Source: Hydrotalea sp.
GTDB lineage: Bacteria > Bacteroidota > Bacteroidia > Chitinophagales > Chitinophagaceae
DNA: 64,000 nucleotides
Direction of reading: 5' to 3'
NCBI RefSeq assembly: GCF_049968455.1
Contig: NZ_JBMFQT010000015.1
Span: 6,285-70,284 of the forward strand
In this document: piece by piece, positions 12,120 to 50,438 of the stretch
Layout of the letters: every line of letters begins with the position of its first letter
Numbering within the stretch: the stretch's first letter is position 1
Position numbers and translations under genes: made by a program
Notes under the pieces: model-generated
Databases searched by the model: none
What the model was told of the DNA's origin: nothing
Seen by the model: the letters and a program-made list of their open reading frames with translations, nothing else

Positions 12120-13655
12120 ATGAAGAAAATGTATTTATTGCCTATTTTATTAGCAGGAATGAATGTAGGAATCATAGCACAACCTGCTCCTCCACCAGCT
12201 CCACCTAAGCCCCCAATGGATTCTGCTGCCAAACCCGTAGTAGCAGTTACACACCATAGTATTGTAATTGCTGGCAAAACCATTAATTATACTGCTACAG
12301 CCGGTACGCTTATTTTAAACAATGACAAAGGTGAACCTATTGCCAGTTTTGGTTATGTAGCTTACACAAAAGAAGGTGTTACAGACTTAAGTAAGCGCCC
12401 GGTTTTGTTTGGTTATAATGGAGGTCCGGGCTCTGCTTCATTATGGTTACACATGGGTGCATTAGGGCCTCGCCGTGTTGTGGTGAATGACTTATCCGGA
12501 CCTACACCACCCCCTTACAAAGTTGAAGACAATCAAAATTCTATATTAGATGTTACTGATATTGTAATGATTGACCCCGTTGGCACCGGCTTTAGCCATG
12601 CCATTGGCAAAGCACAAAACAAAGATTTTTGGGGTGTTGACCAAGATCTTCGTTCTATCAGCAATTTTATTAAAGAATATATTACTGAAAACGATCGTTG
12701 GAATTCTCCAAAATATTTATTGGGTGAAAGTTATGGCACCATGCGCTCAGCCGGTGTAGTTAATTATTTGCAACAACGGTTGGGCATTGCTGTGAATGGT
12801 GTTGTACTCGTTTCTTCTGTATTAGACTTGCGTCAACTGACTTTTGGTGCCGGAGATGATATTTCCTACGTTATGTATTTGCCTACCTATGCTGCCACAG
12901 CTTACTTTCATAAAAAGTTACCCAATCAACCTTCCGACTTCAAAGCTTTTATTAACGAGGTAACAAATTATGCCAAAGGCACCTACACCACAGCATTAAT
13001 GTTGGGCGATAAAATTGATGCTGCTACCAAAAATGCAGTTGCAGAAAAACTTGCAGCATATACCGGTTTAAGTAAAGAGTATATTTTAAAAGCAAACTTA
13101 AGAGTAAATGAACCTCAGTTTACACAAGAACTGCTGCGCGACCAACACCTCACTGTTGGCCGATTAGACAGTCGCTTTACAGGTATTGATCAAAATTTAT
13201 TAAGTGAAAATGCAGAGTTCGATCCACAAAGTACAGCCATTACGCCTGCCTATACTGCGGCATTTTTAAATTACTTGTATAGCGAATTGAAAGTGAATAA
13301 AAGCATGTCTTATCACACATCTGCTTACAATGCAGAAGGATTTCATTGGGACTGGCAACGCAAAGGCGGCATGTGGGGCGAAGGGGTTTACCCACCCACC
13401 ACTGCACCTGACTTAGCTAATGCCATGAGCAAAAATCCAAGTTTAAAAGTTTTAGTTTTTAATGGTTATTATGATTTGGCTACACCATTTTATGGTACTG
13501 AGTATACCATGGATCATTTAGGATTGGAACCTGCTATTCAAAAAAATATTAGTATGAAATATTTTGATGCAGGGCATATGATGTACATTCATCCTGCTTC
13601 ACTAGTAACCTTTAGAAAAGATATTGTTGATTTTATTAACAGCACGAATCCTTAA
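12120..13655 (+). CDS. Peptidase S10 (serine carboxypeptidase) family protein, secreted
   Basis: 'FGYNGGPGSASLW' and the nucleophile motif 'LLGESYGT', with a late 'DAGHMMY' His region. The ATG at 12120 gives the signal peptide MKKMYLLPILLAGMNVGIIAQ. Confidence 0.85.
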   Translation: MKKMYLLPILLAGMNVGIIAQPAPPPAPPKPPMDSAAKPVVAVTHHSIVIAGKTINYTATAGTLILNNDKGEPIASFGYVAYTKEGVTDLSKRPVLFGYNGGPGSASLWLHMGALGPRRVVVNDLSGPTPPPYKVEDNQNSILDVTDIVMIDPVGTGFSHAIGKAQNKDFWGVDQDLRSISNFIKEYITENDRWNSPKYLLGESYGTMRSAGVVNYLQQRLGIAVNGVVLVSSVLDLRQLTFGAGDDISYVMYLPTYAATAYFHKKLPNQPSDFKAFINEVTNYAKGTYTTALMLGDKIDAATKNAVAEKLAAYTGLSKEYILKANLRVNEPQFTQELLRDQHLTVGRLDSRFTGIDQNLLSENAEFDPQSTAITPAYTAAFLNYLYSELKVNKSMSYHTSAYNAEGFHWDWQRKGGMWGEGVYPPTTAPDLANAMSKNPSLKVLVFNGYYDLATPFYGTEYTMDHLGLEPAIQKNISMKYFDAGHMMYIHPASLVTFRKDIVDFINSTNP

Positions 13656-17168: not shown

Positions 17169-17549
17169 TTACCCACCATTCACAAACTCAATTACATGCG
17201 CTTGCACATATACTTCTTTTCGGAAATAAATGGGAAATAGTATTTGCACTAAATTTTCTTCAGTAGTAACATTTATAACAGCCCTTGCACTGCCCATTAA
17301 ATTAGCTTGCTTTAGCATATCTGCTTTTGCCATTGCAACCAATGCTTTGTGCGATAAACCACCAATTCCCAACACATAAGCGGCTTGCGCTTTTCCGGTT
17401 ACCAAACCAACTACCTTGTAATTTTTTTGAGATAAGGTTACATTCGTAACATTATTGTTGAAATTGGCTGTTAAAGCCATATTCATTCCACAACTGCATA
17501 AAAGAATAGTCATTAAAATGACAGAAAGTACACTTTTTAATTTCATCAT
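17169..17549 (-). CDS. Small lipoprotein, hypothetical
   Basis: The ATG at 17549 gives MMKLKSVLSVILMTILLCSCG with a lipobox. No family was recognised. Confidence 0.55.
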   Translation of the reverse strand: MMKLKSVLSVILMTILLCSCGMNMALTANFNNNVTNVTLSQKNYKVVGLVTGKAQAAYVLGIGGLSHKALVAMAKADMLKQANLMGSARAVINVTTEENLVQILFPIYFRKEVYVQAHVIEFVNGG

Positions 17550-17756
17550 AATTTTGGCTTTATAAAAAGATATTCGGTTAAAGAGTGTTACAAGAAATTG
17601 AGCCTGAACACCTGACAAATTTACTTTGCCATTAACCCAAAGCAGAAAATTTGGTAAACAATTGCATTATTTAACCAGTTATGTTTTTAATTTGCGTAAC
17701 CCCATTGAAAAAAGTATATTTACACATTAGTTATTAACTAAATAACTTAGAAAAAA

Positions 17757-19163
17757 TTGAACTACCCCTTTTTGAAAATATTGAATAAATGGTTATGGAT
17801 AATAGCAATTTGCCATGTATGCTCTATGACCAATGCCCAAAATAATACTGCACATCATCCTGAAATAGAATTTTTATTAAAGTATCCAAAGTCTGTACAC
17901 ATCACCTTACCCGGAAGAAATGCTGAGTTTATTAAGTTATCTCATCCCTGGGAAAATCAAAGACAAGTACTTTTAAAATCAGATACCGCCATTTACCTTT
18001 TTATTGACGGGTCGGGTATCATTTATCAATACAATCATCATCAATTTGTAAGAATGGACTCCACTATTTATAGGGGTTACAATTATGGTGCTTTCCCTTT
18101 TATATATAAAAATGAATTATATAATTTAGGCGGTAGTGGTTATTGGCGTATTACAGGGCATTTACGAAAATATAGCAATAAGGCACATGAATGGTATATT
18201 ATTCCTTTAAATGAGGAAAATCCGGTACTTAATGAACCTAATGCCAGCATGATTTGGTATAATCCCAATGCAGGAAAAATTTATTGTGCCAATTTTGTTG
18301 ACAAAAATGGAGGCATAAAAAAGCAAACAACACAAAATTATAACCAATATAAGGTGAAAGTGCTTGACCTAAACACCTTAAACTGGACTACTTTAGGCAC
18401 TTTGAATAAAACTTTATGGCCATTTACCAAATCTACTCAGGAAGTTGCTATGACCCCCTGGGGCGTACTACTAGATAATGATGGGAAAAACCTATTGTGG
18501 AACTTTGAGAAAAATACTTTATACCGTTTACCATTGGAAAACGACAAAAGCCAGTTTATTATTACGAATTATTTAAATGGAAATTTGTTTTGTTTAGATT
18601 CAACCCTTTACTTGTGCGAAAAAAATAAAATTGATACCATTCCCCTCAGCCTTTCGGAATTTGAAGATACAGGTATACCAATTTATGTGAAGGAAGCAAA
18701 TCAGTTGCATACAAATAGTAACCTCACCATTCTTATCATTGCATGCTTAGTGGTATTAGTTGGTGGAGTTGCATTTTGGAAGTATTATAAAAACAAACAA
18801 CATGCGCCATCCTTACAACAAATTGTTACCAATAACCTAACTGGCGAAAAAAGCTTATACACAAAAAAATTTCCGGAGTATACTGATCAAGAATGGGAAG
18901 TATTAAAATTAATCTTACAAAATACGCAAAATAATGAACCTACTAGCATTGATGAATTAAACAGCATATTAGGTTTAAAAAATAAAAGCTTGGAAACACA
19001 AAAAAGCCAGCGATACAAAATTCTTACTTCCATTAATCAAAAGTACTTAGCCATAAAAGGCACAGAACTGATTATTCGTGAACCGGATGCTATCGATAAA
19101 AGAATTAAAGTATACCATATTCATCCCAATGCGATAGCTGAATTGAAGGCCAATATGAGCTAG
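17757..19163 (+). CDS. Membrane-anchored putative transcriptional regulator (extracytoplasmic repeat domain, one TM, C-terminal wHTH-like domain)
   Basis: Signal-like N-terminus, then a ~300-aa domain with Kelch/beta-propeller-like repeats ('LYNLGGSGYW', 'GKIYCANF'). This is followed by the TM helix 'LTILIIACLVVLVGGVAFW' and a cytoplasmic tail 'YTDQEWEVLKLILQN...PTSIDELNSILGL...QRYKILTSINQKY'. Confidence 0.5.
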   Translation: MNYPFLKILNKWLWIIAICHVCSMTNAQNNTAHHPEIEFLLKYPKSVHITLPGRNAEFIKLSHPWENQRQVLLKSDTAIYLFIDGSGIIYQYNHHQFVRMDSTIYRGYNYGAFPFIYKNELYNLGGSGYWRITGHLRKYSNKAHEWYIIPLNEENPVLNEPNASMIWYNPNAGKIYCANFVDKNGGIKKQTTQNYNQYKVKVLDLNTLNWTTLGTLNKTLWPFTKSTQEVAMTPWGVLLDNDGKNLLWNFEKNTLYRLPLENDKSQFIITNYLNGNLFCLDSTLYLCEKNKIDTIPLSLSEFEDTGIPIYVKEANQLHTNSNLTILIIACLVVLVGGVAFWKYYKNKQHAPSLQQIVTNNLTGEKSLYTKKFPEYTDQEWEVLKLILQNTQNNEPTSIDELNSILGLKNKSLETQKSQRYKILTSINQKYLAIKGTELIIREPDAIDKRIKVYHIHPNAIAELKANMS

Positions 19164-19204: not shown

Positions 19205-19717
19205 CTAAAAATTATTCCATTGCGTTCCCGATTCATTGTCAAATCCGTACTTACGAGATATTGTTGTTTTACCCAACGCATCTGTTTGATAATAAGTCCA
19301 CCCAACTTTTGCAGGGGCTAATGTAACCTGTGTAGATAATAAACCATTACAGCCCATTGCCTCTGTACAATTAATTACTCTAACATTTTCCATGAAAACG
19401 GTGTTTCCTAAAACAAGCTGACCTGAATTACCCATTTGTAAAACGGATAGTAACCCATTTTTTAATACAATGCCAAGTTGCATAGCCCTTTTTAAATCGG
19501 CACTTGCTCCTGTTATATTCATAGAAAATATAAATTGATTGCTGTTTTTCCCACCCTCAGAAAAAGACAGTATAGAAATATTACCTTCAAAACCACGCAT
19601 GAATGCATCACCTTTGATTAATTTACCCGTTTCATCAAATAGCTTTAAATAAACTCTTTGGTTTTGAGCCCATGTGATAAGCGGGAAGTACAACAAAAAA
19701 AGTATAATTGTACGCAT
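19205..19717 (-). CDS. Hcp/TssD-like (PF05638-like) protein carrying an N-terminal Sec signal peptide
   Basis: Signal peptide MRTIILFLLYFPLITWAQ. The mature N-terminus is 'VYLKLFDETGKLIKGDA..GFEGNISILSFSEGG' and the C-terminus is 'TQVTLAPAKVGWTYYQTDALGKTTISRKYGFDNESG'. Both follow the opening and closing strands of proteobacterial-type Hcp as I remember them, and the mature length (~150 aa) also fits. Confidence 0.55.
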   Translation of the reverse strand: MRTIILFLLYFPLITWAQNQRVYLKLFDETGKLIKGDAFMRGFEGNISILSFSEGGKNSNQFIFSMNITGASADLKRAMQLGIVLKNGLLSVLQMGNSGQLVLGNTVFMENVRVINCTEAMGCNGLLSTQVTLAPAKVGWTYYQTDALGKTTISRKYGFDNESGTQWNNF

Positions 19718-19741
19718 AATATAGATTTTTAATAATTAAAT

Positions 19742-21142
19742 TTATTTAGAGAAGCCCGTAAAAACCCCTGAACCAGGATATTGAGCATCATTCATCCACA
19801 AAACTCTTTTCCCTTTTTGTGCCGTAAAATAAACATCATAAACCTTTGGTTTACCACTGATATCTGAAAACCGTATTTGCCAATTATTAACTGACTCAAA
19901 AACACCATTACTTTTACTTTGCAAAACACCTGTTCTTCCACCAAAACTGTTAGTAGCTATCAATTGCCATTCATAATGGTTGCTCCCGTCAAAATTGAAC
20001 CATTGCGTTGAGGCATAGGTTTGCATTCCAGCACTTTGACCGGTATAAATATTAGTATAGTAGGTATTACTTGTAAAACGATCCGTCCATTTACCGGTAC
20101 CAAATAAATCTGCAGCGGCCACAGCAAATTTGTTTCTACCAGACATGTTATCAAGCGTTTGCAATACATCAGCATTACTATCCCATTGAATGGATTCCGG
20201 ATCAAAATGAAATGTGGATACAAAATCAGCTTTTGTGGGTGTTATAACTTCTATCCAACCGGCACTTCGTTTAAACAATACCAGATAAACTTGTTGTTTG
20301 GTTACATTTGAAACCGCATTCCCAAAGCCAATATAAGGTCTATTAAAAGTATTAATGTAAGTAGTTCTGAAATTAGTTAAGTTACTGTAACGAGGTGCAA
20401 CTAAAATATTCCATGCAGTTCTAACAAGCGGATCCGTATCTGCAGGAAATATTGTTCCTTCTTTAGGATAATGCAATAAAACTTTGTAATTATCTTTTGA
20501 TACTTCTACCCAATCTTCTTTTTCAATTGCAGTCCACCCATCATCAAAATTTGTAGTATTAAATGTAAACTTAGAATTCGCAACAGGCGTTTCAATCTGC
20601 ATCCATTGATTGTTGTTTTGTATCACTAATGTTGAATCCGAAACCGATTGTTTGAATTGTACTGACGATAAAAAATCATCAATTAATGATGTATATACAG
20701 CACTGTTAAACATCACTAATATATTTACCGTAGTATTTTTGCGAGTTGCATTTACTAGCAGCGCAACACCGCTTAATTCACCTTCATTAAAAGGTGCATA
20801 ACCACTAATAGCTTCCCATTCCTGTTCTTTTATTGGTTTTTGCATTTCCGGTTCATTGTTTACGTGCAGGTTTTGCTTTACCAATTGCTGCCAGGAAAGG
20901 TCAAAGTTTTGTTTTAGTGTACTCGTTGTTATAGCGCTTTTAAAAATTGATATTTTACACCACTCCTTATTTTTTTGATTGATAGTATAATAATTTCTTA
21001 CGTCTTGAAATGTCTGTTGCTCCCATCCAATGGGTGGTTTAAACGTTACAAGATCAAAACTATCTATTTGCGCATTTAAGTTGGTAATGAAAAACAATGG
21101 CATCAAAAGCACTCCTGTGCTATGCATTAATTTAGTTAACAT
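19742..21142 (-). CDS. Exported hypothetical protein (466 aa)
   Basis: Signal peptide '...GVLLMPLFFITNLNAQ'. The composition is beta-rich and W/Y/N-rich. No family was recognised. It sits in the operon with 23-24-nt gaps on each side. Confidence 0.6.
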   Translation of the reverse strand: MLTKLMHSTGVLLMPLFFITNLNAQIDSFDLVTFKPPIGWEQQTFQDVRNYYTINQKNKEWCKISIFKSAITTSTLKQNFDLSWQQLVKQNLHVNNEPEMQKPIKEQEWEAISGYAPFNEGELSGVALLVNATRKNTTVNILVMFNSAVYTSLIDDFLSSVQFKQSVSDSTLVIQNNNQWMQIETPVANSKFTFNTTNFDDGWTAIEKEDWVEVSKDNYKVLLHYPKEGTIFPADTDPLVRTAWNILVAPRYSNLTNFRTTYINTFNRPYIGFGNAVSNVTKQQVYLVLFKRSAGWIEVITPTKADFVSTFHFDPESIQWDSNADVLQTLDNMSGRNKFAVAAADLFGTGKWTDRFTSNTYYTNIYTGQSAGMQTYASTQWFNFDGSNHYEWQLIATNSFGGRTGVLQSKSNGVFESVNNWQIRFSDISGKPKVYDVYFTAQKGKRVLWMNDAQYPGSGVFTGFSK

Positions 21143-21165
21143 AAAAACATTTCATTAATGCATGA

Positions 21166-23031
21166 TTAATAAATTGGAACATTGGTAAAAGTTCCTTTAA
21201 TATCACCCGCAAAGCCATTGGTAAAGGTTTCCGTCATAGCATCGCCCTTTTTAATGGGCTTAAGTCCTTGAATCATCACACCAAATGTAAAATAACCACT
21301 TGCTTTACCATTTTCTACTTTTTCAATAACAAACTTGCAGGTTGGAGATGCAGCTGGTAAATGACGAATTAATCCCTCATCCACAAAATTGGCCATATGT
21401 CCGTTGGTAACAATAGGTGAAAATTTATATACATACGGTTTTTTATCTGTTCCATAAAATAATACCGCTTCATTGTCTTTTATTTCAGCATATTGTTTAG
21501 TTCCGTATAATGGTTGCTTTTGATTAATCTCCTGAAAATTGAATGTTTCAGGTTTTAAATTGCTATTCACAGATACCAGATGAATCTTCACATAATTTTC
21601 TTTGCTATTACCTTCCTCTTTACTTGCAATGAATGTATAAGTATTTTCACCTGTTTTCATAAACTGAGCAAACGGTAATTGTGTATTTAAAATTTTACTT
21701 TGCAATTGCAAATTGGTATTACTTACCGGAGTACTGTTTTTTCCGGTTGATGTATTTGTACTAGGCTTAGCTGCATTGGGTTTACTTTCAGAAGTTGAAT
21801 TGATGGTGTTGCTATAATTATCGGCTTCAGGCTTAAATATAAATTCAACTCTTCTATTTTGTGCTTTACCTTCCGGTGTTTTATTATCAGCAATGGGTTG
21901 TGATTCTCCGCGCCCTTCTGTAGTAAGTTTGGATGCATCAATATTATATTGATTAACTAAAATATTTTTTACTGTTTCAGCACGTTGTTGTGAAAGTTTT
22001 AAATTTAGTGCTTCATCACCGTCACTATCGGTATGACCAACAATTTTAACTAGTGTAGTTGTTTCTTTCAGCACTTTACTTACATCTAACAAAGCACCCA
22101 TACTTTCGGGTTTTAAATTAGCAGTACCACTATAGAATAATAGGTTACTAACTAATTTACCTTCTTCAAAACGAGAACGGGTATCGGGTACATCCTTTGC
22201 AACACGAATATTACTCACATAATAGTCTGTTCCACCAACACTGCCGAAATTGAAGCCAAATTGATTAGGCAAATAAGTTTCATTGACAGCGGGTAAATCG
22301 TATAACTTTCTATCATTCCACCACATTCTAAAACGCTTACCTTGTACACACATACTAACATGTACCGGTGTTAAATTATTGTAAGGTAACTCCTCAGACA
22401 TATTATCTGATAGCCGTTTATCGAGATTTCTGAGGATAGCGCGGCTTTTATTTTCACCCGCAATGATAGATTCAAAATATATTGCCGGTTTAGCGCTTTG
22501 TAAAATACCCTCATCAGTTACTAAATTACCTCCTGTATTATACAAAACAATATCGAGCCTTGGATCGTATGAATTCTTTACAATCAACAAATCAAATTCT
22601 ATAGTGAAATTATTTCCCCAACTTTGCTTTTTGTTGCGCGATATATGTGTGGCATTACTTGCGGCCATTTTTACCCACTTACCCTCTAAACCATCAATGG
22701 TTACTACTTCAGCCGATTTAGAAGTAATCCATCCTTCAGGAGCTTCACCAATATTATCTTTTTCAAAATTATCAAAATATAAAATGGTAGTACCCGGAAC
22801 AAAATCAAACTTACTATACACTTTTAAATCGGGTTGACGTGACTGACTTGATGCCGTTGCATTATCACCTGCATCAGATTTTTTAGGATTATCATTTGTT
22901 TTAGGTGCATCCGCTTTATCAATTTTTTTTGATACTGCCTGCTCTGCTTTTTGTTGTAGCTTTTTTAATAACTGACTGTGGGTATTGTTTATGCAAAACA
23001 GTATACCCAAGCTTAACATTATTAGTTTCAT
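21166..23031 (-). CDS. OmpA-family peptidoglycan-binding protein with an N-terminal jelly-roll-like domain and an unassigned ~190-aa C-terminal extension
   Basis: Signal peptide MKLIMLSLGILFCINNTHSQ. The OmpA_C core is 'VKIVGHTDSDGDEALNLKLSQQRAETVKNIL...GRGESQPIADNKTPEGKAQNRRVEFIFK' (roughly residues 330-400), followed by a Ser/Thr/Asn linker and a further domain. Confidence 0.85.
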   Translation of the reverse strand: MKLIMLSLGILFCINNTHSQLLKKLQQKAEQAVSKKIDKADAPKTNDNPKKSDAGDNATASSQSRQPDLKVYSKFDFVPGTTILYFDNFEKDNIGEAPEGWITSKSAEVVTIDGLEGKWVKMAASNATHISRNKKQSWGNNFTIEFDLLIVKNSYDPRLDIVLYNTGGNLVTDEGILQSAKPAIYFESIIAGENKSRAILRNLDKRLSDNMSEELPYNNLTPVHVSMCVQGKRFRMWWNDRKLYDLPAVNETYLPNQFGFNFGSVGGTDYYVSNIRVAKDVPDTRSRFEEGKLVSNLLFYSGTANLKPESMGALLDVSKVLKETTTLVKIVGHTDSDGDEALNLKLSQQRAETVKNILVNQYNIDASKLTTEGRGESQPIADNKTPEGKAQNRRVEFIFKPEADNYSNTINSTSESKPNAAKPSTNTSTGKNSTPVSNTNLQLQSKILNTQLPFAQFMKTGENTYTFIASKEEGNSKENYVKIHLVSVNSNLKPETFNFQEINQKQPLYGTKQYAEIKDNEAVLFYGTDKKPYVYKFSPIVTNGHMANFVDEGLIRHLPAASPTCKFVIEKVENGKASGYFTFGVMIQGLKPIKKGDAMTETFTNGFAGDIKGTFTNVPIY

Positions 23032-23048
23032 TGTATTTATTTTAATGA

Positions 23049-25151
23049 TTAATTGAGGCTTTCTAATAAACCAGTTCCACCCATTGAACTACTGCCACTC
23101 ACCAAACTAATTCTACCTTCTACACCTATATCAGCAGGTCCTGCACTTACTCCTGCTTTACCAATTACATATGCATCCTTTAGGCCGGTTCTATCAATTT
23201 CAATACCCACTCCTCCACCTGCAGATGCACCCACTTGAATAGGACCAACTTCTATTTCTTTACCTGCTTCTGCTGTTATTTCAACAGTGCAATTCATAAA
23301 TTGATCTGCAAAAGTTTCCTTATCCATATTCTGTTTCAAACTTCCCTTAATAAAGGGCACATCAATAGAAGTGGTTACCCTACTGCAATCAAAACTTGCC
23401 TTCATCACAATCATGTTTAATTCTGTATGATATTGGCATGCAACATCATCAAACTCTGCTAACTTAAATTTGCCGGAAGGTTTATTTTTCGATTCTTCTG
23501 TACATATGTATAAGGTGTTTTTTTCAAAATGGGCTTCGCGTAATGCTTCCCACCATTTAATCTTCATCATTACTTTGCTGGCTTCAAATTCTTCGGGCCA
23601 TTGCGTATATTTTAACCAGTGCACTTCCTCATTCATTTTACGACGGAATAAATCCAGCATTTGTTGTTTTAATTCTTCAGCCTCGGTATTAACAGTTTGC
23701 AAATAATTATTTGTCAGCAATTTCTTTTCCGCGCAAAAACTTTTGTTAGCTAATCCTTCACCGGTTTGTTCCGCTTCTTTTTCATTAATGGTATGCAATA
23801 ACGAATCATAAGTTTTTTTCAATTCATTTTGTTTGTATAAAAACTTCATTTGTTTTTCATTCAGTCGCTTTAGTTGCACCATATAATTACTCGACTCATC
23901 GTTCAATGCTTTTAATTTTAAAGCTGCTTTTGGAGCATAAAAAGGCATTACCGATAATGTACCTGTTTTTTTACCTGTTAGCAATGCTTTATTGACGAAT
24001 TGTATGTTTTGATTAATTCGTATAGAATTATTTTGTTGTGCTAATTCCTGTAATCCTTTTAAAGTTTGTTTCAATTTTTCAATTTCTTCATCACACATAG
24101 CTATGTAATTAGCCCAATCTTTCTCTAATGCAATGCACCCATCAACCGATTTAGGATAAGCCGGTTGTTGATATTCCGATAAAATGAGATTTTCATCATT
24201 ACCGGGCAATTTCCATTCAATATCTTTCTCAGAAATTGTTACACCAAATTTTCTAAGTCTACTTTCTTTTTCATTTGTATATGCGTGATGTAACGATTGC
24301 TTTACTGCATTAATAGCACCGTTTTTGTTACCCTTGCTTTCTTCAATGTATGATTTGGTAAGATTAGCTTGCGGATGATATGCATACAAACGAATAGCAC
24401 TATCTAAATATTTTTCAGCTTTATTCATTTCACCTAATCCATACCAGGCCTGACCCAAGTTATTAAGTATGGCATTATTATTCGGATACTGTTTATTTAA
24501 ATACTGCAGAATAGGAATAGACAGGGGTTCAGCACTGCTCATAATTAACATAGAAGTATAATTGCTCAAATTGTCTATATTATTTGGATTTTGTAAAACT
24601 ATTTTACCCATAACATATACTGCCACTGCCTGATTTCCCATCATCCAAATTCCCACAGCCGCTCTTCCGGCTTGTGCAGCAGGCAATGACATTAATTGTT
24701 GAAATATTTCATCCCCTAACGTAACAATAGAAGCACCCATAACCTGTTGAATTTTTTGCTGACCATATTTTAATAAAGTAATTACACCCTGTTGTGTAAC
24801 AGGTGTGGGTGGTATACGACTAATTCTTGCCGTATTTCTTATGGGAACTATTTGCGTTTCTTTTGCATAAGCCTTACTCAATTGCTTGTCATTTACATGG
24901 GACACTTGTTGAGCTGTTTTATTAAAATCAGGAAGAAGAATACCTAAACTGTCCATCGTCTTTTTTTCCTTAGCACTTATATTACTCATTTGCTTTTGAG
25001 CCTGTCGTATTAAGGCTTGCATTTCTTGTTGTGTAGGTGGCTGTTCAACATTGCTTTTTTTAACAGATTGCCCTATTAATAAATGGCTGTTGAGAATAAT
25101 AAACAAGAAGAATGAACATTTCAATATTTTACAATAAAAAAAAGAATACAT
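23049..25151 (-). CDS. Exported TPR/coiled-coil protein with a glycine-rich C-terminal domain (700 aa)
   Basis: Hydrophobic N-terminus. TPR-like 'LNNLGQAWYGLGEMNKAEKYLDSAIRLYAYHPQANL'. Long heptad-like segments (EIEKLKQTLKGLQELAQQ..., LKRLNEKQMKFLYKQNELKK...). The C-terminus is 'VGPIQVGASAGGGVGIEIDRTG...GVSAGPADIGVEGRISLVSGSSSMGGTG'. Confidence 0.65.
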   Translation of the reverse strand: MYSFFYCKILKCSFFLFIILNSHLLIGQSVKKSNVEQPPTQQEMQALIRQAQKQMSNISAKEKKTMDSLGILLPDFNKTAQQVSHVNDKQLSKAYAKETQIVPIRNTARISRIPPTPVTQQGVITLLKYGQQKIQQVMGASIVTLGDEIFQQLMSLPAAQAGRAAVGIWMMGNQAVAVYVMGKIVLQNPNNIDNLSNYTSMLIMSSAEPLSIPILQYLNKQYPNNNAILNNLGQAWYGLGEMNKAEKYLDSAIRLYAYHPQANLTKSYIEESKGNKNGAINAVKQSLHHAYTNEKESRLRKFGVTISEKDIEWKLPGNDENLILSEYQQPAYPKSVDGCIALEKDWANYIAMCDEEIEKLKQTLKGLQELAQQNNSIRINQNIQFVNKALLTGKKTGTLSVMPFYAPKAALKLKALNDESSNYMVQLKRLNEKQMKFLYKQNELKKTYDSLLHTINEKEAEQTGEGLANKSFCAEKKLLTNNYLQTVNTEAEELKQQMLDLFRRKMNEEVHWLKYTQWPEEFEASKVMMKIKWWEALREAHFEKNTLYICTEESKNKPSGKFKLAEFDDVACQYHTELNMIVMKASFDCSRVTTSIDVPFIKGSLKQNMDKETFADQFMNCTVEITAEAGKEIEVGPIQVGASAGGGVGIEIDRTGLKDAYVIGKAGVSAGPADIGVEGRISLVSGSSSMGGTGLLESLN

Positions 25152-25179
25152 CTTAAAACATTTATTACTGATTTAAAAA

Positions 25180-25665
25180 TTATTTCAAAGCATTTGTTTG
25201 TAGTTGTGCAATCTCACCCGCAACAATATTGGCAACATTAGCCACCTGACGAATCAAACGTTCCATATACTTACTATTCAACAAATCAATGAATGCATCA
25301 GAACGGATATATACATCATTATGCTGATCCATTCCTATTTTAATCAAGTCAAAATGATCAGCCTGCTGTAACAAGTGGTGCATTACAAGTGAATCATCTT
25401 TAAAAGATTGTACTTCAGATAAATTGGTATAGATAATGCATAAATCACTTACGCGCTGAATAACAATTTGATAATCCGGAATACTGCTTCCACTGTATGG
25501 AATAACTGCTACGCTATCATTTATAATACGATAAGGCAAAGCAACTTTTAACAATAATTGCTCCATTATACCTTCTTTTTGGGGAGCCAAAGATTTTGTT
25601 TGTGCCTGCATTAAAAAGGGAACAAACATCACCAGCAGTAGGAATAAGCATTTTAATTGTTTCAT
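25180..25665 (-). CDS. Exported small protein, YbjN/T3SS-chaperone-like fold suspected
   Basis: Signal peptide MKQLKCLFLLLVMFVPFLMQAQ. The pattern 'YRIINDSVAVIPYSG...YQIVIQRVSDLCIIYTNL...LLQQADHFDLIKIGMDQHNDVYIRSD' resembles the YbjN-like (PF10722) layout. The assignment is weak. It is the first gene of the operon. Confidence 0.4.
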   Translation of the reverse strand: MKQLKCLFLLLVMFVPFLMQAQTKSLAPQKEGIMEQLLLKVALPYRIINDSVAVIPYSGSSIPDYQIVIQRVSDLCIIYTNLSEVQSFKDDSLVMHHLLQQADHFDLIKIGMDQHNDVYIRSDAFIDLLNSKYMERLIRQVANVANIVAGEIAQLQTNALK

Positions 25666-25853
25666 ACACTGTAATAGGTTAAATGCACAATTGAATAAAA
25701 CTGACTAAACAGCAAGTGTAAAAATGAAAAAATTATATCCTAAAACCTATCCCTTAAAACTGGGATATTCATTAAATCAATCAAAAATCACCTGAAAGGG
25801 GGAATAGTGGATTATCGATAAAATGGTTAATTTGTTAAGACAATCATCAATTA

Positions 25854-27827
25854 ATGTCGTACAAAAGGCTATTGTATTTTATATTATTTGTTGCTGCTAT
25901 GCATATAAACCTGAAGGGGCAAACTATCAGTGCCGATAGCATAATGCAACAAATACAACGCATGCCTAATGATACCGCAAAAGTGAACAAATTAAATGAA
26001 CTGATTGGATTACTGCAATTTCAAAATCATGACAAAGCAGAAGAAATATCGTGGAAATCTATTCAATTAGCGCAACAATTAAATTATAGATTAGGATTAA
26101 TAATTGCCAGAAGATTAAGAGGTGTATTATATATTGACAAAGCCCAATTAGATAGTGGCAAATATTTTTATGATAAAGCATTTGCTTTAATTAAAAATTC
26201 AACCCAACCTACTTTTATTAAACAAAAAGGCCTATTAACCCACAATTATGGAGTTATTTATCATCAACGTCAATTATATGACTCCGCCACTATGCAATAT
26301 TTAGAAGCGATAAAAATCTTTAACTCTATCAATGAAGAAGGATTGACCTTTTTCCCCTGTTTAAATTTAGCCACTATTTATAGCTTCTTAAATGACAATA
26401 ATAAAGCACTATATTATAGTAAAGAAGCCATAAAAGGTGCAGAAAAATTAAATGATAAAACTAAATTGGTCATTGCCATTAACCAGGAAATGTCCATTCA
26501 TATCGCTTTAAAAAATTTCGATACTGTACTTACACCTTTAAGAAGAAATATTGCATTAGCACATTCACTTCAACATTACTATGCAGAAGGAAAAGCGCAC
26601 CATTTATTGGGTAAATATTTTTCGGAAGGAAAACAAATGTTTGATTCTTCTATTGAAAACAAAAAAAAGGCATTGACATTAATGCAGAAAATTCGCAATC
26701 AATATGAAATTACTAGTATTACAGAAGATATAGGCTTCGACTATCTACAAAAAGAAAACTATAATGAAGCCAAATACTATTTAACACAATCCATTAGCCT
26801 AGCGCAACAATTTGGATTAGATCAAATTAAACAATATGGTTTAGAAAATATGGTAATAGTAGAAGAAAAATTAGGCAACATTCCTGCTGCTTATCAATAT
26901 TTAAAAGAGTATACCACTTTAAAGGATTCATTGGCAGCCCGTTCAAATCAAAATTATTTATTTGATCTAGAAGCCAAATATCAAAATGCCAATAAAGAAT
27001 TACAAATTGCACAATTAGAGTCTGAAAAAAAAATTCATGAATTAGCATTGAAGCAAAATAAAATTTGGAATTATGTTCTAATTGCAGCATCTATTACCAT
27101 ATTTATTATTGGTTCGTTAACCTATCGCAATCACAAACACAAACAAACACTACAACAACAACGTATTATTGAACTAGAAACGCAACAACAACTGGCCGCT
27201 ACAGAAGCAATTTTGAAAGGTGAAGAACAGGAAAGAACCCGTTTAGCCAAAGATTTACATGATGGATTAGGAGGCATGCTATCGGGTATCAAATACACTA
27301 TGAGCCATATGAAACAAAATTTGATAATGACACCCGAAAACCAACAAGCATTTGAACGTAGTTTAGATATGCTTGATTCTTCTATCAACGAAATGCGCAG
27401 GGTTGCACATAACATGATGCCCGAAGTACTACTTAAATTTGGATTAGATGCAGCTTTACATGATTTATGCCAACAAACAAACGAAACGGGGGCCATTGAA
27501 TTAAAATATCAAAGCATTGGTATTAAGAATAAAACTTTTGAACAAACAACCGCCATACATATTTACCGAATTGTACAAGAGCTGATTAATAACATTTTAA
27601 AACATGCTAATGCACAACAAGCCATTGTGCAAATTACTGATGATGATAATACTATACATATTACGGTAGAAGATAACGGCAAGGGCATGCCGGAGCACAA
27701 ACAACAATTTTCAAAAGGAATTGGATGGAATAATATATATAGCCGAGTAGATTATTTAAAAGGGAAAGTAGATATTCAAACCGCACCGGGAAAAGGCACA
27801 TCAGTTCACATTGAACTTAATGTATGA
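25854..27827 (+). CDS. Sensor histidine kinase (periplasmic TPR domain, one TM, HisKA_3, HATPase_c)
   Basis: Signal/anchor, then TPR-like repeats over ~350 aa and the TM 'IWNYVLIAASITIFIIGSLTY'. These are followed by a coiled coil, the H-box 'ERTRLAKDLHDGLGGMLS', N-box 'ELINNILKHANA' and G-box 'DNGKGM...GIGWNNI'. Confidence 0.9.
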   Translation: MSYKRLLYFILFVAAMHINLKGQTISADSIMQQIQRMPNDTAKVNKLNELIGLLQFQNHDKAEEISWKSIQLAQQLNYRLGLIIARRLRGVLYIDKAQLDSGKYFYDKAFALIKNSTQPTFIKQKGLLTHNYGVIYHQRQLYDSATMQYLEAIKIFNSINEEGLTFFPCLNLATIYSFLNDNNKALYYSKEAIKGAEKLNDKTKLVIAINQEMSIHIALKNFDTVLTPLRRNIALAHSLQHYYAEGKAHHLLGKYFSEGKQMFDSSIENKKKALTLMQKIRNQYEITSITEDIGFDYLQKENYNEAKYYLTQSISLAQQFGLDQIKQYGLENMVIVEEKLGNIPAAYQYLKEYTTLKDSLAARSNQNYLFDLEAKYQNANKELQIAQLESEKKIHELALKQNKIWNYVLIAASITIFIIGSLTYRNHKHKQTLQQQRIIELETQQQLAATEAILKGEEQERTRLAKDLHDGLGGMLSGIKYTMSHMKQNLIMTPENQQAFERSLDMLDSSINEMRRVAHNMMPEVLLKFGLDAALHDLCQQTNETGAIELKYQSIGIKNKTFEQTTAIHIYRIVQELINNILKHANAQQAIVQITDDDNTIHITVEDNGKGMPEHKQQFSKGIGWNNIYSRVDYLKGKVDIQTAPGKGTSVHIELNV

Positions 27828-28438
27828 TAACAAAATTGTTCATAGTAGATGACCATTATATGGTAATTGAAGGCATTCATGCATTACTACAAAATGAAAA
27901 AAACATTGAGTGGATAGGGCACGCTATGAACGCAGATTCATGCCTGGCTTTTTTACAACACCAACAACCCGATATTATTTTAATGGATATTAGCCTTCCG
28001 GATACCAGTGGTATTGAGTTATGTAAGATGGTAAAAACAAAATACCCCGCTATTAATATAGTTGCCCTAAGCACATTTAATCAACAAAGCTTTATAAAAA
28101 AAATGATGGAAAATGGTGCTTCCGGCTATTTATTAAAAAATGCTTCCACTAAAGAAATTTTAGATTGCATTGAAACTACCATGAAAGGAAAATCTTATTT
28201 TAGTTTTGAAGTAGCTCAAACATTACGTTATCATTCCAATGATGAAATAATATTAACCCTTCGCGAAAAAGAAGTTTTAGCACTTATCGCGGAAGGATTA
28301 ACGAATCCGGAAATTGGACAACGTTTATTTATTAGCACCACTACAGTTGATTCACATCGAAAAAACATCCTTACAAAATTCAATGTAAAAAATACAGCAG
28401 CACTAATTCATGCTGCCATAAAAAAAGGCTTCTTATAA
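27824..28438 (+). CDS. NarL/FixJ-type response regulator (REC plus LuxR HTH)
   Basis: 'LFIVDDH', 'DIILMDISLPDTSG' and the C-terminal 'LTLREKEVLALIAEGLTNPEIGQRLFISTTTVDSHRKNIL'. A 4-bp ATGA overlap with the kinase gene indicates translational coupling. Confidence 0.92.
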   Translation: MITKLFIVDDHYMVIEGIHALLQNEKNIEWIGHAMNADSCLAFLQHQQPDIILMDISLPDTSGIELCKMVKTKYPAINIVALSTFNQQSFIKKMMENGASGYLLKNASTKEILDCIETTMKGKSYFSFEVAQTLRYHSNDEIILTLREKEVLALIAEGLTNPEIGQRLFISTTTVDSHRKNILTKFNVKNTAALIHAAIKKGFL

Positions 28439-37404: not shown

Positions 37405-37564
37405 ACCACTCCTGTATATTCCTGCAAAAAAATTCGGCTTTTTGCGCGTTTTTCTTAATTTGTGCTGTACCTATTGGTAATTAGGCCAATCAGCACCACA
37501 TAACACCTAACCACATTCAATCGGTGAACTTATGCCTAAATGTTTCAACAAAATAACTTTCATT

Positions 37565-40500
37565 ATGAAGCCTTTCAATGCTTTTTTATTATCCGGCAAT
37601 CAACAATTCAACACACAGCACTCAAAATCACTACGCTTTGCAGGTTATTTATGTATGCTATTGAGTGCACTGATATTTTCCACGAAAACGATTCAGGCAC
37701 AAGACTTTTATAAACATTCAAAAGCGGCTGATAAATGGGTAAACCATACTTTTAAAAAAATGAGCAAAGCCGACCGCATTGCCCAACTAATGATTGTACG
37801 GGCCCATAGTAATTTAGGGGCAGAACACATACAAGCTGTTACACAATTGGTGCAACAATACCATGTAGGGGGTTTATGTTTTTTTCAGGGTGGGCCTGTA
37901 AGACAAGCCTTATTAACCAATTACTATCAAAGTATTGCAAAAACACCATTAATGATTTGTATTGATGGTGAATGGGGACTGGGCATGCGCTTAGATAGTG
38001 TAATATCTTTTCCACGACAATTATTGTTGGGCGCCATTAGCGATAATGCACCTTTAATGTATACAGTAGGAAAAGCTATTGGAGAACAATGCAAACGCAT
38101 GGGCATTCAGGTTAATTATGCACCTGTAGTGGATATTAATAATAATCCACAAAACCCGGTGATTAACGATAGAAGTTTTGGAGAAGATAAATACAAAGTA
38201 GCATTATACGGTACCGCCATTATGCAGGGCATGCAAAGCGAAAATATTATGGCTTGTGCGAAACATTTTCCTGGACATGGGGATGTAGCTGTCGACTCAC
38301 ACAAAGACCTACCCGTTATTAATAAAAGCATGGCTCAGTTAGATTCATTAGAGCTTTACCCATTTAAAGCCTTGATAAAAGCAGGAGTGGGAAGTGTTAT
38401 GATGGGGCATTTATTTGTTCCTGCTATTGATACCACTGAACACCTTGCCACCTCAATATCAAAAAATGCAGTAACAGGTTTATTGAAAAATGAACTTGGC
38501 TTCAAGGGTATTACTTTTACCGATGCATTGGAAATGCAGGGTATTGCTAAATTTTTCCCTGCGGGACAAGCTGCACTGCAATCATTAATTGCAGGTAATG
38601 ATATGTTGTGCCTTCCGGGCGATGTGCCGGGCAGCATTCAATTAATTTTACAAGCCATTAAAGACAAGAAACTAAGTTGGGACGATATTAATGCAAGAGT
38701 GAAAAAAGTGTTATTGGTTAAATACAACATGGGCTTGGCGAAATTTACGCCTATTGATACTACCAATTTAGTAAATGATTTAAATAGCAAAACTGCGCAA
38801 CTAAACGAAACTTTAGCCCAACAAGCCATTACAGCAGTTTCATTCAACAATCATTCATTACTTCCGGTAAACGCAACAAAAAAAATTGCTTATGTTTCTA
38901 TTGGCGCTAATGGCATACCGTTTATTGCACAACAATTACAAAATAGTTATAACACCCATATATATAGTTTTGCCAATAAAGCAAAAATGGGTAATGAGGT
39001 AATGGATAATCTGAATAGCCGGGAACCGTTTACTCAATCGGACTCTGCTACCGCCAATCGTTTATTGCAAACTATTACAGCCAATCAATATGATTTAGTG
39101 TTGGTTGGTTTGCACAATTATAGTCGCCGCCCTGCCAATAATTTTGGTATTGATGCTCCATCGGTTTATTTACTGCAACAATTGCAGCAATTACCGAACG
39201 CCATCATCATTACATTTGGTAATCCTTATGCAATTAGCAATGTATGCAGCGCAACCAATTTAGTTTCTGCTAATGAAGATACCCATGATACCCAAATGGC
39301 TGTTTACAAATGGTTGACTGATAGTTTAACGGCAAAGGGAACATTACCTGTTTCGGTTTGCACAAATTTACCTTACGGTACCGGTTTGCAGTATAACAGC
39401 TGGTTTCCAAAAACAAATCCGGAATTAGCAGGAATGAATGCCACCACTTTATTACAAATTGATAGTATTGCACAAGAAGGCGTAGACAAAGGCGCCTATC
39501 CCGGTTGTGAAGTATTAGCTGCTAGAAACGGCAAAATAGTATACCATAAAGCATTTGGTTATTTAAATCCGGATGAGCAAATTCCTGTAACCTTACAAAC
39601 AGTGTATGATTTGGCCTCAGTAACTAAAATTTCAGCTACCACCGTAGCTATTATGAAATTAGTAGACGAAGGAAAAATTGACATTCAAAAAACTTTAGGC
39701 GATTATTTACCCCAGGCAAAAGGCACCAATAAAGCAGGTTTGGTATTGAAAGATATATTATTACATCAGGCCGGCTTAGTACCATTTATTAGTTTTTATA
39801 AAGAAACCATTGATTCCATAACGGGTAAGCCTTTACCTCAATATTTTGCTACACAAAAAGATGCGCAACACCAAATAAGGGTAGCAGAAAATATTTATCT
39901 GAGAAATGATTGGGATGATACCATTATGCAACGTATTATGAAAAGCAAGTTGTTGCCACATGGGCATTATGTGTACAGTGACAATGACTTTATTCTGTTG
40001 GCAAAAGTGGTGGAAGCAGTTACCGGAAAACCCCTTAATGAATATGTGAGTGAACAGTTTTATGAACCTTTGAAAATGATATCAACTACATTTTCACCTC
40101 GCAAAAAAATTCCTTTAGACCAAATTGCTCCTACAGAAATAGAAACACATTTTCGGAACCAGCAAATGTGGGGCGATGTGCATGATGAAGGTGCTGCAAT
40201 GCTGGGTGGCGTAGCAGGGCATGCCGGTTTATTCAGCAATGCGTATGATTTAGCCCAATTGTACCAAATGCTGTTGAATAAAGGTACCATGAATGGGAAG
40301 CGATATTTATCGGAAAAGGTTGTGAATGAATTTACCGCCTATAACAGCAATATCAGTCGTCGCGGATTAGGATTTGACAAACCGGAAAAAAACAATGCCA
40401 ATTCCAAAGATCCGTATCCTTGCAAAAGTGCTTCACCGCTAACTTTTGGCCACACCGGCTTTACAGGCACCTGTGTATGGGTTGACCCACAATACAACTT

Positions 40501-40612
40501 GGTGTACATTTTTCTGAGTAACCATGTTGACCCTACACGAAATAATAACTTGCTGTTTAACCTGCACATACGGCCTAATATTCAGGAAGTATTGTACAAG
40601 GCCATACAGTAA
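37565..40612 (+). CDS. Fusion protein: GH3 beta-N-acetylhexosaminidase (NagZ-like) N-terminal half plus beta-lactamase/PBP-like serine hydrolase C-terminal half
   Basis: The GH3 half has 'IDGEWGLGMR', 'NYAPVVDIN', 'DRSFGED' and 'KHFPGHGDVAVDSHKDLP'. The C-terminal half has 'YDLASVTKISAT' (SxxK), 'YSDNDF' and 'FGHTGFTGT' (HTG). It carries a signal/anchor N-terminus. The start is ATG 37565 or 37532. Confidence 0.88.
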   Translation: MKPFNAFLLSGNQQFNTQHSKSLRFAGYLCMLLSALIFSTKTIQAQDFYKHSKAADKWVNHTFKKMSKADRIAQLMIVRAHSNLGAEHIQAVTQLVQQYHVGGLCFFQGGPVRQALLTNYYQSIAKTPLMICIDGEWGLGMRLDSVISFPRQLLLGAISDNAPLMYTVGKAIGEQCKRMGIQVNYAPVVDINNNPQNPVINDRSFGEDKYKVALYGTAIMQGMQSENIMACAKHFPGHGDVAVDSHKDLPVINKSMAQLDSLELYPFKALIKAGVGSVMMGHLFVPAIDTTEHLATSISKNAVTGLLKNELGFKGITFTDALEMQGIAKFFPAGQAALQSLIAGNDMLCLPGDVPGSIQLILQAIKDKKLSWDDINARVKKVLLVKYNMGLAKFTPIDTTNLVNDLNSKTAQLNETLAQQAITAVSFNNHSLLPVNATKKIAYVSIGANGIPFIAQQLQNSYNTHIYSFANKAKMGNEVMDNLNSREPFTQSDSATANRLLQTITANQYDLVLVGLHNYSRRPANNFGIDAPSVYLLQQLQQLPNAIIITFGNPYAISNVCSATNLVSANEDTHDTQMAVYKWLTDSLTAKGTLPVSVCTNLPYGTGLQYNSWFPKTNPELAGMNATTLLQIDSIAQEGVDKGAYPGCEVLAARNGKIVYHKAFGYLNPDEQIPVTLQTVYDLASVTKISATTVAIMKLVDEGKIDIQKTLGDYLPQAKGTNKAGLVLKDILLHQAGLVPFISFYKETIDSITGKPLPQYFATQKDAQHQIRVAENIYLRNDWDDTIMQRIMKSKLLPHGHYVYSDNDFILLAKVVEAVTGKPLNEYVSEQFYEPLKMISTTFSPRKKIPLDQIAPTEIETHFRNQQMWGDVHDEGAAMLGGVAGHAGLFSNAYDLAQLYQMLLNKGTMNGKRYLSEKVVNEFTAYNSNISRRGLGFDKPEKNNANSKDPYPCKSASPLTFGHTGFTGTCVWVDPQYNLVYIFLSNHVDPTRNNNLLFNLHIRPNIQEVLYKAIQ

Positions 40613-44247: not shown

Positions 44248-44267
44248 CCTTACTTAGCTTTAACGCC

Positions 44268-47043: not shown

Positions 47044-47198
47044 GCCCAAATTTAGTGCGATTCCAAAATTTTTCATACCCTGTTAAAATTTCGCCGCCTT
47101 ATTTCGGTCACTCACCGCCCAATATTTGCCGTCTGCCTAACAACCATTGTCCACAGTAAAAGGCCAGCATAGTTTTGTGTTGTTTAAATCAAGAATAT

Positions 47199-50437: not shown

Positions 50438-50438
50438 T

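Follow-up and report, generated by a model that had tools for sequence, protein, structure and literature searches.

A mosaic cluster of exported proteins in Bacteroidota, with a Sec-exported Hcp homologue and an adjacent two-component system

The five-gene operon and its products

In a stretch of 64,000 nucleotides (nt) from Hydrotalea sp. (contig NZ_JBMFQT010000015.1), which was analyzed at its full length and is hereafter called the window, five consecutive genes of the minus strand, g1 to g5, encode exported proteins. This operon, the divergently oriented two-component system beside it and the related loci of other Bacteroidota are the subject of this work. A sequence-only reading of the window had described five closely packed open reading frames (ORFs) separated by gaps of 17–28 nt. 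Their coordinates, spanning positions 25665 down to 19205, were matched exactly (Table 1), and the gaps g1–g2, g2–g3, g3–g4 and g4–g5 measured 28, 17, 23 and 24 nt, respectively. A scan of the four gaps for terminator-like hairpins found none in any of them. Since a convergent gene ends 41 nt past g5, the unit is closed at its g5 side. The five genes thus form one predicted transcription unit and are a real operon. The corresponding NCBI records (Hydrotalea sp.) label the products as 'hypothetical protein' or 'OmpA family protein'.

All five products are Sec-exported. An N-terminal hydrophobic stretch, which the earlier reading had taken for a signal peptide in each case, was present in five out of five proteins (10-residue Kyte-Doolittle mean of 2.3–3.4), and hydropathy windows revealed no internal transmembrane segment in any of them. 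No canonical lipobox was seen by eye in the five N-termini, and neither Pfam Por_Secre_tail nor the NCBIfam sorting-domain models detected a type IX sorting domain. The same N-terminal feature was found in 195 of the 213 members of 11 families from related loci. With an export rate of about 30% of Bacteroidota proteins, which is an estimate and not a measured value, five consecutive exported products would arise by chance with a probability of about 0.002.

Table 1. Positions of the genes, domains and promoter elements in the window
Feature	Position	Strand	Description
g1	25665–25180	minus	161 amino acids (aa); small exported protein, possibly with a YbjN/CesT-like chaperone fold
g2 (G2 family)	25151–23049	minus	700 aa; exported tetratricopeptide repeat (TPR)/helical-hairpin protein
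g3	23031–21166	minus	621 aa; exported, three domains, OmpA_C core
g3, lectin-like domain	22192–22785	minus	residues 83–280; jelly-roll, common to the c4 C-terminus
g3, OmpA_C domain	21853–22140	minus	residues 298–393; PF00691, peptidoglycan-binding domain
g3, C-terminal domain	21169–21744	minus	residues ~430–621; beta-rich
g4 (G4 family)	21142–19742	minus	466 aa; signature gene of the cluster
g5	19717–19205	minus	170 aa; Sec-exported Hcp homologue
Motif A	25783–25804	minus	TTCCCCCTTTCAGGTGATTTTT; ~36 nt upstream of motif B
Motif B	25750–25765	minus	TCCCAGTTTTAAGGGA; inverted-repeat candidate operator abutting the -33 region
-7-like box	25719–25726	minus	CATTTTTA; starts 23 nt after motif B
Sensor histidine kinase	25854–27827	plus	signal/first transmembrane segment, periplasmic TPR sensor, second transmembrane segment, HisKA_3, HATPase
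Response regulator	27824–28438	plus	NarL/LuxR-type; 4-nt overlap with the kinase stop

The Hcp likeness that had been noticed for g5 held over the full length of the protein. Although g5 itself scored 21.4 bits against PF05638, slightly below the cut-off of 23.5, most of its 91 homologues passed, and the family profile matched solved Hcp structures, best of all 4hkh (residues 5–147, E = 4e-6). The g5 family therefore consists of full-length homologues of Hcp (TssD). Canonical Hcp is synthesized in the cytoplasm and has no signal peptide. In g5, by contrast, there is a cleavable Sec signal peptide, whose cleavage region is of the AQ type, and an invariant pair of cysteines, Cys117 and Cys123. 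Both traits were kept in 36 out of 36 aligned homologues, which argues that g5 works in an oxidising, extracytoplasmic compartment. The Cys pair and the conserved cysteines of the G2 family would likewise suit an oxidising compartment. A further difference from Hcp of type VI secretion lies in the surroundings of the gene. In 19 of 20 loci the Hcp gene lay immediately downstream of a G4 gene, whereas in the five loci L003, L004, L086, L087 and L088 no core type VI Pfam family (sheath TssB/C, baseplate, VgrG, membrane complex) was detected within 10 kb of it, and a scan of 45 proteins of the window likewise showed no type VI gene. When look-ups were seeded with Hcp homologues instead of G4, the same picture of the cluster emerged. 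The cluster is not type VI secretion. In databases the g5 homologues nevertheless appear as 'type VI secretion system tube protein Hcp', a label that can falsely imply type VI secretion in such genomes. These proteins represent an Hcp fold recruited to the Sec pathway and retained there, independently of a contractile injection machinery.

The G4 family comprised 1083 homologues, none of which carried a Pfam domain, and showed 53 invariant columns and about 45% identity across genera. It occurs as one to four tandem paralogues per locus. A structure model of g4 (mean predicted local distance difference test score, pLDDT, of 79) contains two alpha/beta domains (residues 27–160 and 196–336) followed by a C-terminal beta-barrel (350–465). 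In Foldseek, the alpha/beta part resembled PsbP, CyanoP, DcrB, Tsi3 and BT_1490 (target-normalised TM-scores of 0.5–0.63), and the protein as a whole resembled BFA1/DUF3598. The earlier reading had called g4 beta-rich and unassignable; neither Pfam nor NCBIfam matched it, and the model is mixed alpha/beta plus a barrel and not purely beta-rich. An 87-aa ORF (19960–20223, minus) lies inside g4 on the same strand and in a different frame. Searches of Pfam, NCBIfam, PADLOC, PHROGs and the sequences of solved structures gave nothing for G4, G2, g1 or the C-terminus of g3 beyond TPR and OmpA_C.

The OmpA_C domain recognized in g3 by the earlier reading was confirmed with PF00691 (81.3 bits, cut-off 27.2; E = 7e-23), and it matched the structures of YiaD, Omp38 and YfiB. 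The same reading had left both flanks of this domain unassigned, which now applies to one of them. The N-terminal flank aligned with residues 400–634 of c4, a family of about 630 aa from related loci, with an hhalign probability of 97.8–98.5%, and is assigned as a c4-type lectin-like domain; the c4 profile in turn showed a weak match to galectins (E = 3e-3; galectin/ConA-like). By contrast, the C-terminal domain, of about 190 residues, had no match in Pfam, NCBIfam, solved structures or the profiles of the other locus families. Full-length homologues of g3 were found only in L006 (Mariniflexile maritimum), L028 (Flavobacteriaceae) and, in a separate search, L088 (a TARA marine contig), with 64% identity to those of L006 and L028. 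A 124-aa ORF (22463–22837, plus) runs antisense inside g3. In related loci, two clusters of conserved antisense ORFs (clusters 1 and 6) look like by-products of sense-gene conservation and not like genes.

A TPR array combined with a long coiled coil had been proposed for g2, and this is backed by its structure model (mean pLDDT of 75, falling to only about 50 in the C-terminal region). The model shows a helical N-terminal region, a TPR array at residues ~120–300 and long helical hairpins at 336–538. Residues 575–694 form a poorly modelled, Cys-containing, Gly-rich amphipathic beta region with an alternating hydrophobic pattern. Fold matches were confined to the TPR part: in Foldseek searches of the G2 model against solved structures and viral models, the hairpins and the beta region found no match. 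The G2 family comprised 346 homologues in which C473, C572 and C589 are invariant. An exhaustive search with its C-terminal half retrieved 193 relatives among 1.84 billion representatives, all in the same architecture of about 700 aa and without informative domain fusions. The 700-aa start of g2, with its signal peptide, is supported by an alignment of 33 homologues in which M1 and Q28 are invariant. As an exact sequence, the 700-aa translation was absent from a collection of 15 billion proteins that contains its four neighbours, and the public annotation of g2 may use a different start.

Six homologues of g1, at 39–42% identity, were found, each immediately upstream of a G2 gene. As to the YbjN likeness proposed for g1, three of these six matched YbjN (PF10722) at sub-threshold level (best E = 0.018), and g1 itself had no match. 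A match of the g1 family to CesT was also sub-threshold (E = 0.11), and no solved-structure sequence matched g1.

A recurrent cluster and its predicted control

The operon g1–g5 is a local variant of a widespread, unnamed cluster of Bacteroidota, found mainly in Chitinophagaceae. One genome per GTDB species (185,579 species genomes) was scanned with G4 as seed, and 231 loci encoding a G4 relative were found, mostly in Chitinophagaceae, with some in Flavobacteriaceae, Pedobacter, Cytophagales and others. For 83 loci (80 fetched and three earlier ones), ORFs were called and clustered and hidden Markov models of the families were built. In these loci the genes form a same-strand mosaic cluster with the order G2 ... 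G4(n) - Hcp. The cluster starts with optional c25 (a small protein resembling the N-terminal part of G4) and g1, followed by G2 or, alternatively, by the PD40-propeller protein c12. It continues with optional c16, c11, c4 or c26, then one to four G4 genes, often an Hcp homologue and often an M48 peptidase. PD40 repeats were detected in 10 of 14 c12 members, and lipocalin-like barrels in c25 and G4. Recurrence of a co-oriented cluster across Bacteroidota, which had been set as a check on the operon, argues that the neighbourhood is not a chance juxtaposition.

Family counts were made in the 55 loci of at least 15 kb. G4, which had been selected for, was present in 55, G2 in 33, the LuxR-type regulator in 32, the sensor kinase in 30, c4 in 27, c11 in 18, the Hcp homologue and c12 in 17 each, the M48 peptidase in 16, and g1 and g3-type genes in six each, the full-length OmpA form of the latter being restricted to L006, L028 and the window. 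Few loci have the exact five-gene set. Gene content is mosaic, and this is more in keeping with a regulon or toolkit than with a machine whose composition is fixed. Profile–profile comparison of all locus families linked the N-terminal domain of g3 with the C-terminal domain of c4, c16 with the N-terminal half of c4, and the TPR regions of G2 and c26; all other cross-family matches were due to the signal peptide only (first ~20 residues). Mean column identity of the families was 46–69%, and all of them appear to be under purifying selection.

At least 20 loci of Chitinophagaceae have the same chromosomal neighbours, on the fmt and RecG side, a shared position that suggests vertical, core-like inheritance. 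The five-gene variant has a different affinity. The closest full-length relatives of g3 (64%) and g4 (51%) were found in Flavobacteriaceae and marine contigs and not in other Hydrotalea or Chitinophagaceae, and another Hydrotalea genome (L004/L015) has a 'standard' locus with c12, c4 and M48. Together, these observations suggest lateral transfer of the five-gene variant.

The five genes had been regarded as self-contained, which proved too narrow, as the unit includes a divergent kinase/regulator pair and a common promoter element. The pair belongs to the unit: orthologues of the kinase adjoined the cluster in 30 of the 55 loci, usually in divergent orientation. Pfam and hydropathy placed TPR_12 at residues 129–198 and beyond, the second transmembrane segment at ~404–425, HisKA_3 at 460–525 and HATPase_c at 567–656. 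The best near full-length NCBIfam match of the kinase was the model of Porphyromonas FimS (NF053520), with which it aligned over residues 128–615 with E = 1.3e-17 and 63.3 bits, the cut-off being 600. The regulator carries Response_reg (E = 1e-24) and GerE (E = 1e-19) domains.

Motif discovery was performed on 13 aligned intergenic regions between kinase and operon, from genomes that share only about 40% identity at the protein level. Motif A, of consensus CTCCCCTTTTTCCATGATTTT, was present in 10–11 of the 13 regions; its 8-mers occurred in 10 sequences, the maximum in shuffles being six. It was seen only in the kinase-proximal promoter, where it may serve, for instance, to let the divergent kinase operon regulate itself. 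The consensus of motif B is the inverted repeat TCCTGTTTTTCAGGGA. In the window its sole match (0.04 expected in 64 kb) lies 84 nt upstream of the g1 ATG. A second match to the pattern, TCCTCATTTAAAGGAA at 18217 (minus), was discarded as chance, for it lies inside the gene of a 468-aa protein described below, does not match the stricter pattern and lacks a -7 box at the 23-nt spacing. Across 1.37 Mb from related loci, motif B was found 58 times in the orientation of the operon and 5 times in the opposite one, with 4.9 in shuffles, and in its strict form 45 times against none. The matches are situated 34–108 nt upstream of ORFs, nearly all of which start with a signal peptide.

Bacteroidota promoters have a -33 element TTTG and a -7 element TAnnTTTG. 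At many sites TTG followed motif B directly, and the pattern [CT]ANNTTT[GA] started exactly 23 nt past motif B at 36 of 60 sites, with 0–1 at control offsets. Judged against the Bacteroidota consensus, this spacing gives the layout of an activator-dependent promoter. In the window, the predicted transcription start falls some 50 nt ahead of the g1 ATG and a few nucleotides past the -7-like box. The composite promoter of motif A, motif B and a CAnnTTTR box is conserved across genera, occurring in the window, in L009, L021, L029, L038, L045, L048, L058–L060 and L076, and in other intergenic regions. We infer that motif B is bound by the adjacent LuxR-type regulator. A sigma-70 promoter scan of the window performed no better than shuffles, as expected for Bacteroidota, and Rfam showed no RNA family within the window.

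The genes behind motif B were G4 (18), G2 (9), M48 (eight, identified by their conserved N-terminal sequence), c25 (4), c12 (3) and the g1 of the window. The M48 product is a LoiP/BepA-like outer-membrane lipoprotein with a lipobox, and its gene was preceded by motif B in at least eight genomes (L004, at 12234–13037, L026, L029, L033, L041, L059, L009 and L021), which places it in the same regulon. Also found downstream of motif B were lipoproteins of about 255 aa with a YD-repeat-like sequence (TIYTYDDKGR; L009 at 12121 and L050 at 5799), exported proteins of 441 aa (L026 and L029) and several Pro/Ala-rich exported proteins.

Possible roles of the cluster and other genes of the window

The periplasm, or else the inner face of the outer membrane, is the probable site of action of the cluster products. 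The role that we favour, tentatively and with somewhat less than even confidence, is that of an undescribed, two-component-controlled periplasmic module for inducible envelope maintenance or protection, that is, for quality control of the outer membrane and peptidoglycan. In such a module the FimS-like kinase would sense a periplasmic signal through its TPR domain and activate the LuxR-type regulator. The regulator would bind the inverted repeat TCCYNGTTTTNRGGGA near -33, 23 nt upstream of a weak -7 box, and its binding would switch on g1–g5 in the window; in other loci the same element precedes extra G4 paralogues, PD40 propeller proteins and the LoiP/BepA-like M48 lipoprotein, which would respond likewise. 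To judge from the folds, g3 would attach to peptidoglycan by its OmpA_C domain and present its lectin-like domain, G2 would provide a TPR/coiled-coil scaffold, and G4, the disulfide-bonded Hcp-like protein and g1 could serve as binding or chaperone-type modules. Envelope maintenance is the theme to which OmpA_C, the PD40 propellers and the co-regulated M48 lipoprotein point. BepA takes part in the quality control of outer-membrane proteins (PMC13478230).

Several observations weigh against an envelope-maintenance module. Its functional theme is drawn from folds, promoter architecture and a single recognisable enzyme, M48, which the window locus lacks, and the modules (PsbP-like, lipocalin-like, lectin-like, TPR) are of generic binding types that would fit the capture of ligands or nutrients as well. 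With a gene content that varies so much, the products may each act on their own, and the five-gene variant may be a second copy that was acquired laterally and has a specialised role. As to control, motif B is nearly palindromic and yet strongly biased in orientation, L086 and L088 have no match to its pattern, and the real recognition element may be larger or be read by another factor.

Generic binding modules lead directly to an alternative that is unlikely but keeps some weight, namely that the products are independent periplasmic or surface binders for the uptake or handling of ligands such as glycans, lipids or peptides, forming no complex and having no part in envelope integrity. The lectin-like domain in g3 and c4, the lipocalin-like barrels in G4 and c25 and the PD40 propellers would all fit such a function, and both the mosaic content and the adjacent regulator pair are reminiscent of substrate-utilisation loci. 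Nevertheless, the cluster has no conserved transporter, TonB-dependent receptor, SusD-like protein or catabolic enzyme; its one conserved enzyme is a protease of the type concerned with outer-membrane quality control, and neither a peptidoglycan anchor nor an Hcp fold would be expected in a utilisation locus.

It is also unlikely that the cluster builds a new envelope structure or conduit, with periplasmic Hcp rings or tubes, G4 as partner or adaptor, G2 forming oligomers by way of its helical hairpins and placing its amphipathic beta region in the outer membrane, and g3 as anchor, by a mechanism unrelated to type VI secretion. Such a structure would account for the full-length Hcp homology joined to a signal peptide and a conserved Cys pair, for the almost constant adjacency of G4 and Hcp (19 of 20 loci), and for the OmpA_C anchor and the short intergenic gaps. 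In addition, the last 120 residues of G2 are Gly-rich and modelled as long beta-hairpins, with the low confidence in the monomer that an oligomeric barrel might show. That beta region is, however, poorly modelled and without structural match; Hcp was present in only 17 and G2 in 33 of the 55 loci, and no inner-membrane or ATPase component lies in or near the cluster, which leaves the structure with no energy source. In its most specific form, in which disulfide-bonded rings or a tube of Sec-exported Hcp would join G4, G2 and the peptidoglycan anchor in a structure induced through the TCCTGTTTTTCAGGGA operator, the idea is improbable though not negligible. If true, it would be the first use of the Hcp/phage-tail-tube fold outside a contractile machine and beyond the inner membrane. 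Any structure that the products did form would be an envelope apparatus of a new kind.

An inducible defence against competitors, in which the Hcp-like protein would be a decoy or sink, G4 proteins immunity-like binders, g3 a reinforcement of the wall and the kinase a sensor of envelope damage, is quite improbable. The alpha/beta domain of G4 resembles the immunity protein Tsi3, diverged G4 paralogues occur in tandem arrays of one to four, expression is predicted to be inducible through a periplasmic sensor, and the Hcp fold is placed in the compartment where type VI effectors arrive. However, Tsi3 is one among many matches to the generic PsbP fold, and the large size and strong conservation of G4 (about 45% identity and 53 invariant columns) set it apart from fast-evolving immunity genes. 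In addition, the cluster keeps its chromosomal position and is not island-like, and there were no PADLOC or polymorphic-toxin matches. Finally, a decayed or orphan type VI remnant, as the naming of g5 homologues by several sources might suggest, or a chance neighbourhood of unrelated exported proteins is scarcely credible, given that the signal peptide and Cys pair were kept in 36 of 36 homologues, that no type VI gene was found in the 45 scanned proteins of the window or, in five loci, at a distance of up to 10 kb, that synteny and a common promoter element recur across dozens of genera, and that all families appear to be under purifying selection.

Envelope biology is poorly charted in Bacteroidota outside the gut Bacteroidales, and, to our knowledge, no counterpart of the inducible sigma-E, Cpx or Rcs envelope responses has been defined there. 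Should the cluster be a stress regulon, it would open a way into how a major environmental phylum signals envelope stress. The locus is a well-delimited, testable unit with a sensor and regulator, a promoter element of fixed geometry and a regulon made up almost entirely of unnamed exported families.

Other genes of the window include two that are close to the end of the cluster. The gene convergent with g5 (17757–19163, plus) encodes a 468-aa protein with a signal peptide and an internal transmembrane segment at ~317–340; it had no family match and no relative in the related loci, and is apparently not part of the cluster. Just past the cluster, a gene at 17169–17618 (minus) encodes a protein of the DUF6567 family (E = 5e-46); the TTG start listed for it probably lies too far upstream, as an internal Met-Met precedes the hydrophobic segment. 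A 1026-aa fusion of glycoside hydrolase family 3 with a beta-lactamase-fold domain (37532–40612, plus) is possibly a NagZ-like/AmpH-like enzyme of cell-wall recycling. A PorZ-like protein (44193–46595, plus), with the PorZ N-terminal beta-propeller (E = 9e-32) and Reg_prop repeats, is unlinked to the cluster and indicates that the organism has parts of type IX secretion. A LiaF-like membrane protein (47175–47945, plus) lies near a LytS-type (His_kinase) sensor and the 245-aa ORF that follows it (49385–51167, plus), and these genes are a second candidate envelope-sensing module in the window.

Comparison with described systems

The sequence-only reading could not map the operon to any described secretion, gliding or Tol-Pal system, and searches of Pfam, NCBIfam, PADLOC and PHROGs likewise gave no match to a secretion, gliding, Tol-Pal, type IX or defence system. 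They also assigned no set of unrelated well-known functions to the products, and most of the component families had no Pfam or NCBIfam assignment. Literature searches, most of them on exported or orphan Hcp in Bacteroidota or on an envelope-stress two-component system, found no description of the cluster. Among defence systems, Zorya was rejected, as PADLOC reported only ZorB models matching the OmpA/MotB-like part of g3, with no ZorA-like or other hit; matches in PHROGs were also limited to the OmpA domain. A mobile defence island was rejected on account of the conserved chromosomal flanks in Chitinophagaceae and of the G+C content of the window, which showed no anomaly.

Tol-Pal shares with the cluster an envelope location and several types of module: the OmpA_C anchor of g3, the TPR and coiled coil of G2 and, in related loci, the PD40 propeller of c12. 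By contrast, no MotA/ExbB, ExbD or TolA family, as would represent a TolQRA motor, was found in the operon or its conserved neighbours. The g3 protein, of 621 aa, is not a lipoprotein and scored 45.9 bits against Pal (TIGR02802, cut-off 125) through OmpA_C only. The window locus has no PD40 propeller, and c12 reached 19.5 bits against TolB, as compared with a cut-off of 343. G2 differs from CpoB/YbgF in domain order and size, and G4, the Hcp-like protein and g1 have no counterpart. Membership in Tol-Pal was rejected on the lack of TolQRA and of Pal or TolB orthology. With PorE (PG1058) of type IX secretion, g3 shares the plan of a periplasmic multidomain protein that combines interaction modules with OmpA_C. 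It lacks the TPR, propeller and carboxypeptidase-regulatory domains of PorE and is unlinked to type IX genes. A PorE or type IX cargo identity was rejected, as the match to NF052230 (45 bits, cut-off 600) was due to OmpA_C only and no sorting domain was present.

On the side of regulation, the closest likenesses are to FimS-FimR of Porphyromonas gingivalis and to the sigma-E and Cpx regulons of Proteobacteria. The periplasmic sensor of FimS carries TPR motifs and is flanked by two transmembrane segments, followed by the kinase domain (PMC11053733). The window kinase has the same TPR-sensor architecture and likewise stands beside a cluster of exported envelope proteins, whose control by the kinase is here predicted; it is, however, not an orthologue of FimS, and the cluster genes are not type V pilins. 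With the sigma-E and Cpx regulons, which include BepA, LoiP and HtpX, the related loci share a set of exported proteins that includes an M48 lipoprotein and is preceded by a common promoter element. The cluster differs from these regulons in using a NarL/LuxR-type regulator with a TPR kinase, and almost all of its members belong to uncharacterised families. On these comparisons, we rate the cluster as lying outside every described kind of system.

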